Shown here one piece after another: positions 1 to 5,956 of a stretch of DNA of 64,000 nt. The notes under the pieces are model-generated. The model had not been told where the DNA came from. It worked only from the letters and a program-made list of their open reading frames with translations, and ran no database searches. The position numbers and the translations under genes were made by a program. Each line of letters opens with the position of its first letter. The stretch's first letter is position 1. The DNA is from Candidatus Uhrbacteria bacterium (lineage in GTDB: Bacteria > Patescibacteriota > Patescibacteriia > UBA9934 > GWF2-40-263), in NCBI GenBank assembly GCA_016188475.1, contig JACPHT010000008.1:34489-98488 (forward strand), given 5' to 3'.

Positions 1-145
1 CGGCTGGAAATATCCGTCCAGCTTTCACTTTCTCGATATTCAACTTGCACAGCATACGCGCCTGCTGTTTTTGGATCTTCTGTGTGAACACGAATCGAGG
101 AGTGGTGTCCGTCAGTGATCGAAAACGTCACCCAAATGGTTTGCT

Positions 146-1279
146 TCATGTTTTCGGCGCCCCAATATCAGCGACGTTTACAACAGCTTGGATGCCGCTG
201 TTACGATCATTGAGCAGATTCGCGCTCTTCAATCGTTGTTCGATCACGAGTCGAGGTGACTCTGCATCCCCACCAGGGTAACGCGCAATAATGCGCGCGC
301 CAATCGCGAGTGCCATTGGTTTGCCGATTGAAACGTCTTCTGCAGAACGAAGTGTGCGACGCGGAGAAGGTCCACCCTGATCCCATGCCTGTTCGGTCGC
401 AAGAGTACGAATCTCGTTTGCGACTTGCACTATGTGAATCGCTTCAGTCTCGCTGATCTTTGTCTTACCAACAAGCCATGGAATTTCCCATTCCGGAGGC
501 GGATATGTGAACTCGTATTCTTCAACTCGATCGCCCATTGCAGAATCAAGCGACTGATTTCCGATGTATCCCGGTCCTACCGGATTGTCAGTCAGAATGA
601 AAATGAATCCTTTCAGACCGTCAATCACGATTGTTCCATCGGTTGTTGTGAACGAGTACTGACCGGTATGATCGAACAATGGATGGAACGGCCCCATGCT
701 GTGACCCATGCGCGAAAACTCATCCAAGCACACAATTGCTTTTGGCCACTGTTTGCTTGAGCGATGTTGTTCGATGAACAACATGAGGTCGCTAGGAACC
801 CACTTTGTCGAACCGTTTTCCGCTGACTCGGCCCCGAACAGATCCTTTGGTTTGAAAATTCCTGTTCCATCAACTTTGATGAACGGCACATCGCCGAGCA
901 CTTTCGCAAGAATCTGTGCGAACGTTGTTTTGCCAGAGCCTTTTGGACCGACAAGTCGAATGCTTCGACCAAAATGAATGTCAGCTTCGATAAGCACGAG
1001 AGTTTCCGGACGAATCCAGAAATCCGCGCCAAGACCTTTGCCATCAATCGAGATGATTTGCCGTTCAAGATGAACAACAACATGAGTTGGACAACGTGCA
1101 GGACCTTTCACTTCAATAAGGCTTGCCGCGAAACGCGCGTTTGCGCAGATTCGATCTGCGAACGATTCAAGATTTCTCACTTCGACTTTTCCCGCGCTCT
1201 TACCGCTTGCGAGAGTTGGTGTGACTGTTCCGTCTTGATCTACGAAAACGACTTCGTATTCTGTCCCGATTGTTGTCAT
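146..1279 (-). CDS. AAA+ ATPase, MoxR/AAA_5 (McrB/CbbQ-like) family with ~110-aa N-terminal extension
   Basis: Walker A LVGPKGSGKTT and Walker B IVCLDEF. C-terminal AAA-lid-like region. GC-rich codon usage unlike host genes. Same strand as and downstream of the retron-type RT. Confidence 0.6.
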   Translation of the reverse strand: MTTIGTEYEVVFVDQDGTVTPTLASGKSAGKVEVRNLESFADRICANARFAASLIEVKGPARCPTHVVVHLERQIISIDGKGLGADFWIRPETLVLIEADIHFGRSIRLVGPKGSGKTTFAQILAKVLGDVPFIKVDGTGIFKPKDLFGAESAENGSTKWVPSDLMLFIEQHRSSKQWPKAIVCLDEFSRMGHSMGPFHPLFDHTGQYSFTTTDGTIVIDGLKGFIFILTDNPVGPGYIGNQSLDSAMGDRVEEYEFTYPPPEWEIPWLVGKTKISETEAIHIVQVANEIRTLATEQAWDQGGPSPRRTLRSAEDVSIGKPMALAIGARIIARYPGGDAESPRLVIEQRLKSANLLNDRNSGIQAVVNVADIGAPKT

Positions 1280-1337
1280 GTTTCTGCCTTTCTAAACAGA
1301 TTTGAATGAACATCTCCTCACATCAAAATATTACACA

Positions 1338-1419
1338 TTGTCATTGCGAGCGACCAACGAGAGCGAAGCAATCTCTTCAAAAAAGAGATCTCTTCGTCGT
1401 CCGACTCCTCGCAATGACA
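1338..1419. repeat. Hairpin element with 12-bp inverted arms ttgtcattgcgag / ctcgcaatgaca and an internal gagatctct palindrome. A related copy lies at 25226-25294.
   Basis: Seen directly. The second copy has arms ttgtcatctcga / tcgagatgacaa and an internal gagagatctctc. Confidence 0.6.
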
Positions 1420-1581
1420 CAAGTAAAACCCTGGTGTAAAAAGCGGTGCCGACTCATAACGAATAGGCACCGCAGTAAAGATCAGCGCAATGGAAGGCGG
1501 CCACGATTACGGTCTCTGACGTAATCGTGGTTGACCCCGGAGCCAAGGGATCCGGGGTCAAAAGCGCGGGAGTATCCCACG

Positions 1582-2002
1582 CTCCCAACTCTCAAGTGCG
1601 TGTTGCACGCGCTCTTGACGAGTCAAGAACCATGGAAGGACGCACGGCTTTGAGGACAGGTCTTGCGAAGCGTCCGCAAAGTCGGCGCGCTGGGACGTAC
1701 ACGAAGTGGCCGTCCCAGTGCGAGTCCGAATGTGCGTCTGTCTTCAAACTCTCAAGCGCGTGTAACACGCGCTCTGATTAGAGTTTGTCTCCTACTCTTT
1801 CGAGTAGGATTAGGTTCAAGTTCAGCACAGAAACAGCACAATGGATAGCGGCCGAGTGACGCTGGACGCGAGTCCTCGAGTGGACAGTGTCACACGGTTG
1901 GACAATGGCGCCATAGCGAAGCGGTGCGCCAGCAGTCCAAAGCGAGAGAAAATCCCTCGTTCCAAACTCTCAAACGCGTGTTGCACGCGTTCTTGACGAG
2001 TC
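1582..2002. repeat. Three direct copies of a 43-bp unit, each itself an imperfect palindrome, at 1582-1624, 1742-1784 and 1960-2002.
   Basis: Unit: caaactctcaa-gcgcgtgt(t/a)(g/a)cacgcg-(c/t)tcttgac/tgagtc. Copies 1 and 3 differ at 2-3 positions. Spacers are ~117 and ~175 bp. Confidence 0.85.
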
Positions 2003-2010
2003 TTGATTGA

Positions 2011-3270
2011 TTATTCCGTTTCCTTAACGAACGAATACGCATGACCTTGACTTATGTCACGAGTTCCAATTCGGAACTGTGTTTTTGCTTTGATGTACAA
2101 CTCGCGGATCGAGCTCGGAAGCTTCTGGTCGTACACCATACTAACGAATCCAACTATCCCGACTAGCAAGCGATGTTCGCGCGTTGTCAAAGGCCACTCG
2201 CGAGCATAAAACTTGTCTGGTGAAAGGTTCGAGTCAAGACTGATTCCTCTTTTCCTGAATGCTACGACATCCTTTTCCATCTGTGCTTTAACAGCCTTGA
2301 GAGCTTCTTCATCACCAGATTGACGCTTGTCTGCAACCTCCAAGAGATTGTGCAGAATCGCGCGGAACTTATTCAACCGCGGTCGCGGAATCGTCAGCCG
2401 GCCGTCCTGATTCGGGATGATTCCCGTAACTTCAGGATACTTCGTTGTCCGTTCTTCGTCACCTTCAGCGCCATCACCAAAGTAAGAAACCTTCGTGCCC
2501 TGAATGGTCCAACCATCAGACCTCACAGCCTGACGAATTTTCTGACGAAGCTTTTTTGGTATCACTTCATCGCTTGAAGAGATTGTGAGATCGTCAACAA
2601 ACCGAGTGTACTTGTAAACTACTCCTTCAGTCGCAGAAGCTGATCGAAGAAGTTGCGAGATGTTTCGATCGACTTGTCCCAGCAGAACATTGAGCACTGC
2701 TGGAGAAGTTGGAAATCCCTGCGGAAGAACATCGTCAACGATGAGCAGATCAACGAAAGTCTCTGCCAGTCGTTTTCCATCCTGTTCTGGAAGACCAGTC
2801 ACAACAGTGATGTAACCAGTGAACGTTGGTCCGAAAATCGCGGAACATCGCTTGCGATTCACTGTCGGAAACGCGTCCTTGAGATCAAGAAGATAAAACG
2901 CTTTCCCGCCCACATGCGCGCGAGCGTTTGTCACGATACTCGTTCCAGGATGTGCCCCATGAACAGCCAAGTGAACCGGAATCCCTTGAATGAACTGCGT
3001 CAAAAGCGCGCGAAGAACTTTCTTGAGCGGATCTGACGGAGCGTGAATCGTCCTGTGTCCCTTTTTCTTGGGAATCTTGTGAATCGTCCACGCATTGCCA
3101 GATGCCCACAAAGCTGTTGTGGCTCTCCATTCTGCTGGATCGATTTTTAGGATTTGACACAAGACTTCTTCAAGTCGTGCGTCAAGAAGAAAAGAAATTG
3201 GTAACCTGCTTTGTTCTGCCATTGTCTCCCCCGTCTGTTTCAGACAGTTGAAGTAATTCCAACGAACCAA
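2011..3270 (-). CDS. Reverse transcriptase, retron-type. Likely true start is the M of MAEQSRLP at about 3222.
   Basis: Motif 1-2 KKGHRTIHAPSDPLKKV. NAxxH box (TNARAH) before YLLDLKDAFPTV. Motif 4 LPQGFPTSP. Motif 5 YTRFVDDLTIS (YxDD). VTG motif (YPEVTGIIP) about 65 aa after YxDD. Block-by-block similarity to my recollection of Ec86 RT. GC-rich. Confidence 0.8.
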   Translation of the reverse strand: MVRWNYFNCLKQTGETMAEQSRLPISFLLDARLEEVLCQILKIDPAEWRATTALWASGNAWTIHKIPKKKGHRTIHAPSDPLKKVLRALLTQFIQGIPVHLAVHGAHPGTSIVTNARAHVGGKAFYLLDLKDAFPTVNRKRCSAIFGPTFTGYITVVTGLPEQDGKRLAETFVDLLIVDDVLPQGFPTSPAVLNVLLGQVDRNISQLLRSASATEGVVYKYTRFVDDLTISSSDEVIPKKLRQKIRQAVRSDGWTIQGTKVSYFGDGAEGDEERTTKYPEVTGIIPNQDGRLTIPRPRLNKFRAILHNLLEVADKRQSGDEEALKAVKAQMEKDVVAFRKRGISLDSNLSPDKFYAREWPLTTREHRLLVGIVGFVSMVYDQKLPSSIRELYIKAKTQFRIGTRDISQGHAYSFVKETE

Positions 3271-3936: not shown

Positions 3937-4010
3937 TCCCGGGTCGTCTAATGGCAGGACATGGGCCTTTGAAGCCCAGTATCGTGGTTCGAATCCACGC
4001 CTGGGAACCA
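3937..4010 (+). tRNA. tRNA-Gln (anticodon TTG)
   Basis: Cloverleaf folded by eye. Acceptor tcccggg/cctggga. Anticodon stem tgggc/gccca with loop ctttgaa. T-loop ttcgaat. 3' CCA encoded. Confidence 0.8.
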
Positions 4011-5882: not shown

Positions 5883-5956
5883 GCGGGATTAGTACAGTGG
5901 TAGTATGCTAGCTTCCCAAGCTAGAGACGCGGGTCCAATTCCCGTATCCCGCTCCA
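5883..5956 (+). tRNA. tRNA-Gly (anticodon CCC)
   Basis: Acceptor gcgggat/atcccgc perfect. Anticodon loop ttcccaa. CCA encoded. Confidence 0.8.

Follow-up and report, generated by a model that had tools for sequence, protein, structure and literature searches.

Repeated RNA hairpins downstream of a retron-type reverse transcriptase in a Candidatus Uhrbacteria cassette with MoxR-class ATPase and vWA partner genes

Results

Layout of the locus

Here we describe three repeats in a 64,000-nucleotide (nt) stretch of the genome of a Candidatus Uhrbacteria bacterium (GenBank assembly GCA_016188475.1, contig JACPHT010000008.1, positions 34,489 to 98,488 of the forward strand), hereafter the window. 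They lie downstream of a gene for a retron-type reverse transcriptase (RT), in a gap that is followed by genes for a MoxR-class ATPase and a vWA-domain protein. A first-pass annotation, made from the sequence alone, had noticed them as palindromic units and offered several functions for them. The three repeats are copies of one family-specific hairpin that folds locally in the RT-sense RNA between the RT gene and the MoxR/vWA genes. We refer to this hairpin as H and number its copies after the original units. Because the RT gene lies on the minus strand, the RT-sense order of the copies is 3, 2, 1. The main features of the cassette are:

2011..3222, minus strand: retron-type RT gene, 403 aa, ATG at 3222, stop codon 2013-2011
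1438..2010, minus strand: structured noncoding RNA region, the 3' untranslated region (UTR) of the RT gene; three modules in tandem, with one H hairpin at the head of each
1959..2004, minus strand: H3 (unit 3 of the first-pass annotation); covariance model 52.8 bits, E=1.8e-11; fold -18.4 kcal/mol, z=-3.6
1740..1787, minus strand: H2 (unit 2); covariance model 39.2 bits; fold -20.7 kcal/mol, z=-5.7
1581..1626, minus strand: H1 (unit 1); covariance model 40.2 bits; fold -16.7 kcal/mol, z=-2.1
146..1279, minus strand: AAA_5 (MoxR/NorQ/CbbQ/midasin-class) ATPase gene, 377 aa; AAA_5 E=4.6e-11 (Pfam)
1..149, minus strand: vWA/MIDAS partner gene (P0121, 632 aa), first 49 codons; the remainder lies past the window edge

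The gap between the RT and ATPase genes is 731 nt long (2010..1280), and about 575 nt of it precede the end of a terminator-like hairpin. The start of the vWA gene overlaps the ATPase stop codon; beyond the vWA gene, the longer contig carries two small open reading frames (ORFs) and then uvrB. An NMNAT gene lies upstream of the RT gene. Only about 95 nt separate it from the RT start, so a classic upstream msr-msd has no room there.

The RT itself is assigned to the retron group by several searches. It matches RVT_1 (Pfam, E=7.5e-14), its best PADLOC models are all retron RTs, with RT_XIII at the top (3e-44) slightly ahead of several other retron RT models, and its sequence matches in the PDB are retron RTs without exception. 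It also matches NCBIfam retron_St85_RT at 1.2e-39, under the curated cut-off of that model. The NAxxH motif (N99, A100, H103) and VTG triplet (265-267) that mark retron-clade RTs are both present and, like the catalytic DD (210-211), do not vary among 19 family RTs. The window RT is 100% identical to P0001, listed at NCBI under Candidatus Uhrbacteria. RTs of the window clade (P0001-P0009, and in part P0012) carry a C-terminal insertion of about 50 residues at RT alignment columns ~330-380, which is absent from P0010, P0011 and P0013-P0020.

The repeats are two-tier hairpins

A repeat search recovered the three units at 1582-1615, 1742-1775 and 1960-1993 (34 nt, 85% identity to the reference copy), with start-to-start spacings of 160 and 218 nt. 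Copies 1 and 3 can be extended to 68 nt (1557-1624 versus 1935-2002) at 84% identity. The units noticed at first reading are thus real, and the covariance-model matches listed above locate them again. At 84-85% identity, however, copies 1 and 3 fall short of the near-identity first claimed for them, and the flanks are shared less widely than had been thought: the right flank tcttgacgagtc is common to copies 1 and 3, whereas copy 2 has tctgattagagt. The palindromic cores are present as described. On the plus strand they read AACGCGTG-TTG-CACGCGTT in copy 3, which shows a compensatory G-C to A-T change, AGCGCGTG-TAA-CACGCGCT in copy 2, and AGTGCGTG-TTG-CACGCGCT in copy 1, where one T.G pair becomes a C.A mismatch in the RT-sense upper stem. 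The unit is longer than an 8-bp core, though: the flanks form a second, lower stem, and each unit is therefore a two-tier hairpin of about 46 nt.

H3 is the first copy in RT-sense order and begins about 7 nt past the RT stop codon. H2 is a variant with an altered 5' internal loop (UAAUCA), and the same variant occurs in two related loci, L003 and L088. Read in RT sense, all three units fold better than their own shuffles. The whole 731-nt gap gives folding z-scores of -14.0 and -13.7 against shuffles, one value for each strand, which bears out the earlier remark that the spacers are highly structured. Because both strands fold equally well, the window alone cannot fix the strand of the RNA. 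A covariance-model search of all 64 kb with filters off returned the three H copies only; leaving aside the reverse-strand palindromic cores of the same units, the next-best match scored 12.4 bits (E=0.71).

Covariation identifies the RT-sense RNA as the selected molecule

The covariance model of H was built from a 17-copy seed alignment of related loci. H consists of a lower stem of about 6 bp, a purine-rich asymmetric internal loop, a 9-bp upper stem and a 3-nt terminal loop. The 5' side of the internal loop reads G-Y-Y-(N)-R-A and the 3' side R-A, and the element ends in a conserved tail, UUGRAAC or UUGGAGC. Both stems covary strongly in homologous loci, as the first-pass annotation had suggested checking. 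In a 35-row alignment, 13 of the 15 pairs change on both sides and 96.5% of 509 cells are paired (97.6% in the seed alignment alone). Both percentages are optimistic, a point that counts against the pairing evidence to some extent: pairing was a requirement of the scan that picked the seed copies, and the rows of the larger alignment were fitted to the model. For covariation the score is 0.759, compared with 0.285 for shuffles (none of 500 reaches 0.759) and at most 0.18 for controls in which the partner strand was slid.

The slid controls are less affected by this inflation, and so is the asymmetry between G.U and A.C cells. The stems contain 77 G.U cells and 7 A.C cells, and pairing falls from 96.5% on the RT-sense strand to 82.7% on the opposite strand. 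The excess of G.U over A.C indicates that the selected molecule is the RT-sense RNA, and neither DNA nor the complementary DNA (cDNA) strand. The strand of the RNA was assigned from this asymmetry together with the orientation of the terminator. The gap folding, the covariation and the RT-sense bias agree with the earlier view that the units belong to a structured, RT-linked region downstream of the RT gene.

Several unpaired bases of H are near-invariant. An internal-loop A is found in 34/34 copies, a second A in 32/34 and a G at the first loop position in 30/34, and the terminal loop is 3 nt long in 33/34. An Rfam search of the gap on both strands, with E up to 1, gave no match.

H is confined to one family of cassettes

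A search of 5.8 billion proteins yielded about 20 family RTs at >=36% identity and E of 1e-65 or better, separated by a jump from the next matches, which are ordinary retron RTs at 1e-28. Every family locus that was fetched has the order RT, noncoding gap (320-1490 nt), AAA_5 ATPase (~365-395 aa) and vWA protein (~575-650 aa). One chromosomal site, between the NMNAT gene and uvrB, holds the cassette in Uhrbacteria relatives with RT identities as low as 63%, and remoter family members have it in other genomic contexts. Viral contigs contained neither a family RT nor an exact match to the window-clade H consensus pattern.

Repeats of the same kind are present in the gap of every relative examined. 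The covariance model was run on 434 kb, made up of 16 family sources and 24 other retron-RT neighbourhoods, and all 35 matches fell in family loci. All are RT-sense except one, the reverse-strand palindromic core of window copy 2 (16 bits, E=0.53), and all lie in the RT-ATPase gap except one, in the RT 5' UTR of L090. In a further 782 kb (98 non-family RT loci and 2 new family loci), the model matched both family loci, which had been left out of model building, and gave no significant non-family match (best 17 bits, E=0.55). A generic, genome-wide repeat had been considered at the outset. No further copy was found in the 64-kb window or in about 120 other retron-RT neighbourhoods (~1.0 Mb). 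With filters off, weaker H copies were found in L170, L171, L011, L179 and L013. The number of copies per gap ranges from one (L011, L168, L177-L179) to four.

L090 has a fifth copy upstream of the RT gene and is the sole locus with H in that place. The extra hairpin (L090:2148-2195) lies in the RT 5' UTR, downstream of a TTGACA box and directly ahead of GGAGG and a TTG start codon. Abutting the RT ribosome-binding site in this way, it fits binding by a protein of the system, and it may be a translational feedback operator for that protein.

A remoter cassette with matching gene order was reached through the vWA profile, as a second-tier member (L180 and L181). It encodes an RT of 362 aa, followed by an 848-nt gap, an AAA_5 ATPase and a 701-aa vWA protein. 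Its RT is without NAxxH and VTG, a terminator directly follows the RT gene, and the gap has a G+C content of 40%. H was not detectable in the gap of L180/L181 and is therefore specific to the narrower family, while the existence of this cassette means that the coupling of an RT to a MoxR/vWA pair is broader than the H-bearing family.

The hairpins head the modules of a longer RNA

In RT sense, the window RNA runs through H3, a three-hairpin domain, the motif CCGCUAUCCAUUGUGCUG, a small hairpin and H2; a branched domain and the motif GUGCGUCCUUCCAUGG lead on to H1, which is followed by three hairpins, the motif CCGCCUUCCAUUGCGCUG and the terminator. The module ends and the terminator are:

1834..1853, minus strand: module-end motif GGCCGCUAUCCAUUGUGCUG, 20-nt direct repeat D3; its YUCC may pair with the GGAR after H3
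1630..1645, minus strand: module-end motif GUGCGUCCUUCCAUGG of the middle module; recurs in L003, L088, L005 and L006
1483..1502, minus strand: GGCCGCCUUCCAUUGCGCUG, the end motif of the last module; the other copy of direct repeat D3 (85% identity to 1834-1853)
1438..1473, minus strand: terminator-like element, a GC-rich hairpin GCGGUGCC...GGCACCGC (1473..1443) followed by UUUUU (1442..1438); read from the sequence

Modules 1 and 3 of the window are homologous. Seven homologous modules from five loci share a consensus fold (RNAalifold), with compensatory changes in the inner hairpins. In the same analysis the GGAR after H pairs with the YUCC of the end motif in the seven modules; with 4 bp and little covariation, closure of the module by this pairing is possible. 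The motif at 1630..1645 would, judged by its position alone, be homologous to the CGCAC-N(2-6)-GGAU of single-copy relatives, a motif that includes the start of a2 (see below). A GC-rich hairpin with a U run lies about 100-150 nt ahead of the ATPase start codon in most gaps and is terminator-like on the RT-sense strand only. A simple consensus scan of the window for promoters and terminators returned no promoter at the locus. No ORF conserved across clades was found in the gap; ORF similarities occur among close relatives only, on both strands and in several frames.

A second element, a long, nearly perfect hairpin that we call M, occurs exactly once in 14 of 18 gaps (11 of the first 15, plus L177-L179). 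The loci that have it are L005, L006, L010, L011, L013, L090, L091, L168-L171 and L177-L179. Each arm of M carries two YTGACA boxes 10 nt apart, a spacing of one helical turn that suggests a protein reading one face of the duplex. The stems of M hold 185 Watson-Crick pairs and 6 G.U pairs, compared with 414 and 77 in the stems of H (p=1.5e-6). The near-absence of G.U is what would be expected if M must also pair as DNA, and we regard it as suggestive. M is degenerate in L003 and L088, the closest relatives of the window. These two loci have four modules, and the window is without their first module, the one that carries the degenerate M.

The sequence CGCAC-N(2-6)-GGAU comes after M. In L011, L177, L178 and L179, GGAU-N-UUCCGANN can pair with NNUCGGAAUCC, which lies 15-30 nt past the RT stop codon, and the two outer pairs covary. 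The putative terminal helix resembles the a1/a2 helix of retrons and encloses a small hairpin, H, another hairpin and M. Retron msr-msd RNAs are laid out as a1, short stem-loops, a long stem-loop and a2 (PMC7736814), so a terminal helix around short hairpins and M gives the layout of an msr-msd. The a1-like AAUCGGAAG is kept in L006 and L009, and a G follows a1 in three of the four single-copy relatives, at most a hint of a branching G.

The partner genes

The ATPase matches midasin, NorQ and CbbQ in sequence searches of the PDB, and its PADLOC matches are marginal only (mad8, E=3.7e-4). The vWA protein had zero PADLOC matches. Its C-terminal domain has an intact MIDAS site, with NorD and the midasin MIDAS domain as its closest counterparts, and the MIDAS residues D476, S478, S480, T537 and D565 are invariant. 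An AAA_5 ATPase thus stands beside a vWA protein with the full DxSxS, T and D signature, as in MoxR AAA+/vWA pairs. The N-terminal part of the vWA partner, before the vWA domain, contains an invariant HExxH (H157, E158, H161) and may be a metallopeptidase-like effector domain. Sequence and fold searches found no relative of these ~400 N-terminal residues. A word-indexed search detected 17 homologs of the vWA partner; an exhaustive profile search gave about 8 full-length representative clusters and then a second tier at 1e-96 to 1e-54.

Discussion

Comparison with known systems

The family shares much with the msr-msd systems of retrons such as Ec86 and Ec73. It has a retron-type RT with NAxxH, VTG and YxDD-type motifs, co-inherited effector genes, and a structured RNA that adjoins the RT gene and lies on its strand. 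The 9-bp stem and 3-nt loop of H resemble the 8-9-bp, 3-nt-loop msr elements of Ec86 and Ec73, and the single-copy relatives have a putative terminal closing helix and one long hairpin. The differences are also clear. The family RNA lies in the RT 3' UTR, not upstream, and is 320-1490 nt long; H is repeated one to five times by module duplication and has an extra lower stem and a conserved internal loop. The closing helix and the long hairpin are both missing from the window copy, and a branching G was not identified.

Two described retron types come near in single respects. Type XIII retrons are defined by a winged-helix/SWIM zinc-finger protein and an accessory protein, and are described as having a distinct noncoding RNA structure of their own and as showing signs that they are inherited vertically (Mestre et al. 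2020, PMC7736814). The best PADLOC model of the window RT is RT_XIII, and related Uhrbacteria carry the cassette at a single chromosomal site. The partner genes of the cassette, however, encode an AAA_5 ATPase and a vWA/MIDAS protein; PADLOC matched neither of them to a retron effector model, those for the type XIII partners included. The type VI retron Retron-Vpa2 offers a precedent: its structured 'hybrid RNA' departs from the classic upstream msr-msd and is physically joined to an effector coding region (bioRxiv 10.1101/2025.10.22.683967). The window RNA is likewise directly upstream of effector genes. Unlike Retron-Vpa2, the window has a terminator-like hairpin between the RNA and the ATPase gene, and the effectors are unrelated; no obvious sequestering of the ATPase ribosome-binding site was seen in the window.

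The ATPase and its partner form a pair of the kind known from NorQ/NorD, CbbQ/CbbO, RavA/ViaA and midasin, with a MoxR-class ATPase and a MIDAS-bearing vWA protein. Such couples also occur in conflict systems, and in some cases they are linked to diversity-generating RTs (Kaur et al. 2020, PMC7159879). Here the pair is joined to an RT of the retron type, not of the diversity-generating type, and to its RNA. In the literature searched we found nothing that links a retron RT to a MoxR/vWA pair or describes a retron in Patescibacteria. MoxR-class ATPase/vWA partners appear in none of the retron classifications searched, and the cassette is described in none of the papers and catalogues searched. 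The feature is a variation on the retron theme, with a downstream, modular, multi-handle RNA and MoxR/vWA partners, and falls outside every described retron type.

Several other classes were considered and rejected. A diversity-generating retroelement does not agree with the differences between the 68-nt copies, which are spread over all bases and are not adenine-specific, nor with noncoding repeats and a retron-type RT. CRISPR arrays, integron attC arrays and dispersed repetitive extragenic palindromic (REP) or miniature inverted-repeat transposable elements (MITEs) were set aside since the cassette has no cas or integrase genes and the window no other copies; the first-pass annotation had already doubted the first two, and the 160- and 218-nt spacing supports it. 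A kink-turn (k-turn) is less clear-cut: its adenines are conserved in H, but the canonical combination of a 3-nt bulge with tandem G.A/A.G fits 6/34 copies of H and 0/3 in the window.

A proposed role for H

We propose that H is transcribed from the minus strand within the 3' UTR of the RT mRNA, as part of a modular noncoding RNA of about 575 nt with an intrinsic-terminator-like end. H would be a handle gripped by a protein of the system, most likely the cognate RT by way of its thumb (region Y). It is through region Y that RT-Ec86 and RT-Ec73 recognise their msr stem-loops, which have 8-9 bp and a 3-nt loop (PMC6868368), and it is the match of H to these dimensions that points to the RT. A protein handle is also suggested by the unpaired bases, which are near-invariant while the stems vary freely, and by the fact that H is the sole element present in every family gap. 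The functions first offered for the repeats were RT priming or recognition, protein binding, and pairing in trans like retron a1/a2. A recognition or protein-binding site fits best, given the local fold, the near-invariant unpaired bases and the msr-like dimensions.

In the simplest relatives, one H and M inside an a1/a2-like closing helix would amount to an msr-msd-like RNA placed downstream of the RT, with M serving as the template. In the window lineage, tandem duplication would have raised the number of H-headed modules to three, and the 5' module with a1 and M would have been lost. The RT-RNA complex, possibly with cDNA, would control the MoxR-type ATPase and the vWA/HExxH protein, which would act together as effectors in conflict or defence. 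We infer RT binding of H, cDNA synthesis and a defence role; M as template and control of the ATPase/vWA pair by RT-RNA (or RT-RNA-cDNA) are drawn from the analogy with retrons. As a whole, the proposal that H is an RT-gripped handle in a modular, retron-like RNA controlling the ATPase/vWA pair seems to us to stand slightly above an even chance.

A number of observations count against it. The position of the RNA downstream of the RT is unlike that in described retrons. The a1/a2 helix is drawn from four sequences with two covarying positions, and a duplex-energy test of the 5' region against the pre-terminator region gave a z that was not significant. The helix was not convincingly found in L170 and L171 and was not found in the window, and a branching G cannot be assigned. 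The window has neither M nor an a1-like sequence, and hence no hairpin of the msd-template kind, which weakens the template and control steps for this locus. If M is the template, the window copy may draw on a different segment or make no cDNA at all. The consensus scan mentioned above did not flag the terminator, probably because the terminator loop is longer than the 8-nt limit of the scan. Finally, both the binding of H and the choice of the protein that binds it are matters of inference, and the role in defence is read from the RT type and the gene neighbourhood.

Other explanations of the repeats

H might instead be a structural or protein-binding element that does not serve the RT: a k-turn-like kink, a site for an L7Ae-type host protein, or a docking site for the ATPase/vWA pair, with the number of copies setting the number of scaffolded effectors. 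Like a k-turn, H has a Watson-Crick stem, a 3-4-nt bulge, two non-canonical purine-A/purine-A pairs (R-A facing R-A) and a second stem, and the adenines that would make the k-turn A-minor contacts are the near-invariant ones (34/34 and 32/34). A copy number of one to five, compared with a single M in each locus that has it, is easier to reconcile with a scaffold than with a template. With its 17 homologs, the vWA partner family is no broader than the RT family, so it also co-evolves with the RNA. However, the canonical G.A/A.G pair occurs in only 6/34 copies, and the three in the window have A or C at the normally essential G, so that the likeness to a k-turn would be one of resemblance only. 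Domain and profile searches detected no RNA-binding domain in the ATPase or the vWA protein, and the stem and loop dimensions of H match known binding sites of retron RTs. We consider this explanation plausible, though less likely than an RT handle.

A lesser candidate is that the hairpins are processing signals, for example sites for a double-strand-specific RNase, that cut the 3' UTR into unit small RNAs or templates. The modular layout, with H at each module head and a recurring motif at each module end, is what such a scheme would produce, and a cut at the first H, about 7 nt past the RT stop codon, would part the mRNA from the noncoding RNA. The upper stem, however, is 9 bp only and the helix is broken by the internal loop; an interrupted helix of 9 bp is short for RNase III. 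The near-invariant unpaired bases point to specific recognition and not to a generic duplex, and single-copy relatives have H enclosed by the closing helix instead of at an end. We think it possible but improbable that H works in this way.

Pairing of the repeats with one another, in the manner of retron a1/a2 and with each spacer looped out, was among the functions first suggested. The window copies are similar enough for it (between-copy pairing 92.6%), and in the global minimum-free-energy folds copy 2 is paired with copy 3 on the minus strand and with copy 1 on the plus strand. Across loci, though, the upper stem pairs at 98.2% within copies compared with 84.6% between copies. Where the copies have diverged, compensatory changes preserve self-complementarity at 100%, whereas between-copy pairing falls to 66.7% (L169), 70.4% (L091) and 77.8% (L006). 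The repeats are therefore not a1/a2-like partners. Single-copy loci (L011, L168, L177-L179), moreover, retain H without any partner, and the suggestion has very little left to recommend it.

Least credible of all is action as DNA, whether as a palindromic operator for a dimeric regulator of the ATPase operon, an attC-like recombination site or a MITE/REP repeat: copy 2 is a perfect 9+1+9 palindrome and three sites share one intergenic region, but a 77-to-7 excess of G.U over A.C on one strand is unexpected of DNA palindromes, stems that differ among the copies of one locus yet stay paired are unexpected of sites for a single regulator, no copies were found in the rest of the window, in the other RT loci searched or, by exact match to a consensus pattern, in viral contigs, and the cassette has no integrase or transposase gene.

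A more far-reaching form of the RT-handle proposal would make the cassette a new retron type, in which the template RNA that follows the RT has become an array. Each H-headed module would recruit the RT and yield its own cDNA or ribonucleoprotein unit, and one RT would serve one to five units that jointly gate the MoxR-type AAA+ ATPase and the vWA/metalloprotease-like effector. We put this forward tentatively and hold it to be doubtful. If true, the cassette would be the first example of a multi-unit retron and of a retron coupled to MoxR/vWA, in candidate-phyla bacteria. Retrons are in use as models of phage defence and as in-cell DNA writers, and known retron RNAs follow a single plan, a short msr-msd upstream of the RT; the family changes position, length, number of hairpins and partners. 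It would also bring Patescibacteria, about whose defence repertoire little is known, into the range of retron-like systems. If H is an RT handle, it would be a compact, portable recognition element of about 46 nt, with near-invariant bases and covarying stems that show where to mutate it. The natural variants, with one to five handles and with or without the msd-like hairpin, make the RNA needs of the RT directly testable.

Other features of the region

Two tRNA genes lie near the cassette boundary:

3937-4007, plus strand: tRNA gene
5883-5953, plus strand: tRNA gene

The cassette (window 1-3270) has a G+C content of about 50%, compared with 36-42% for neighbouring genes. A high-G+C cassette at a conserved site could either have been acquired long ago without drifting to the composition of the host or be the product of a recurrent insertion spot.

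A perfect 12-bp inverted repeat, TGTCATTGCGAG / CTCGCAATGACA, at 1339-1419 surrounds a second hairpin (1364-1396) and sits in the loop of a hairpin between the terminator and the ATPase ribosome-binding site. It is present in a single copy within the window. At the equivalent position L003 carries a different insert (GTCATTCTGAGC...CAGGATGAC) and L005 has none. The element at 1339-1419 looks like a small palindromic mobile insert.

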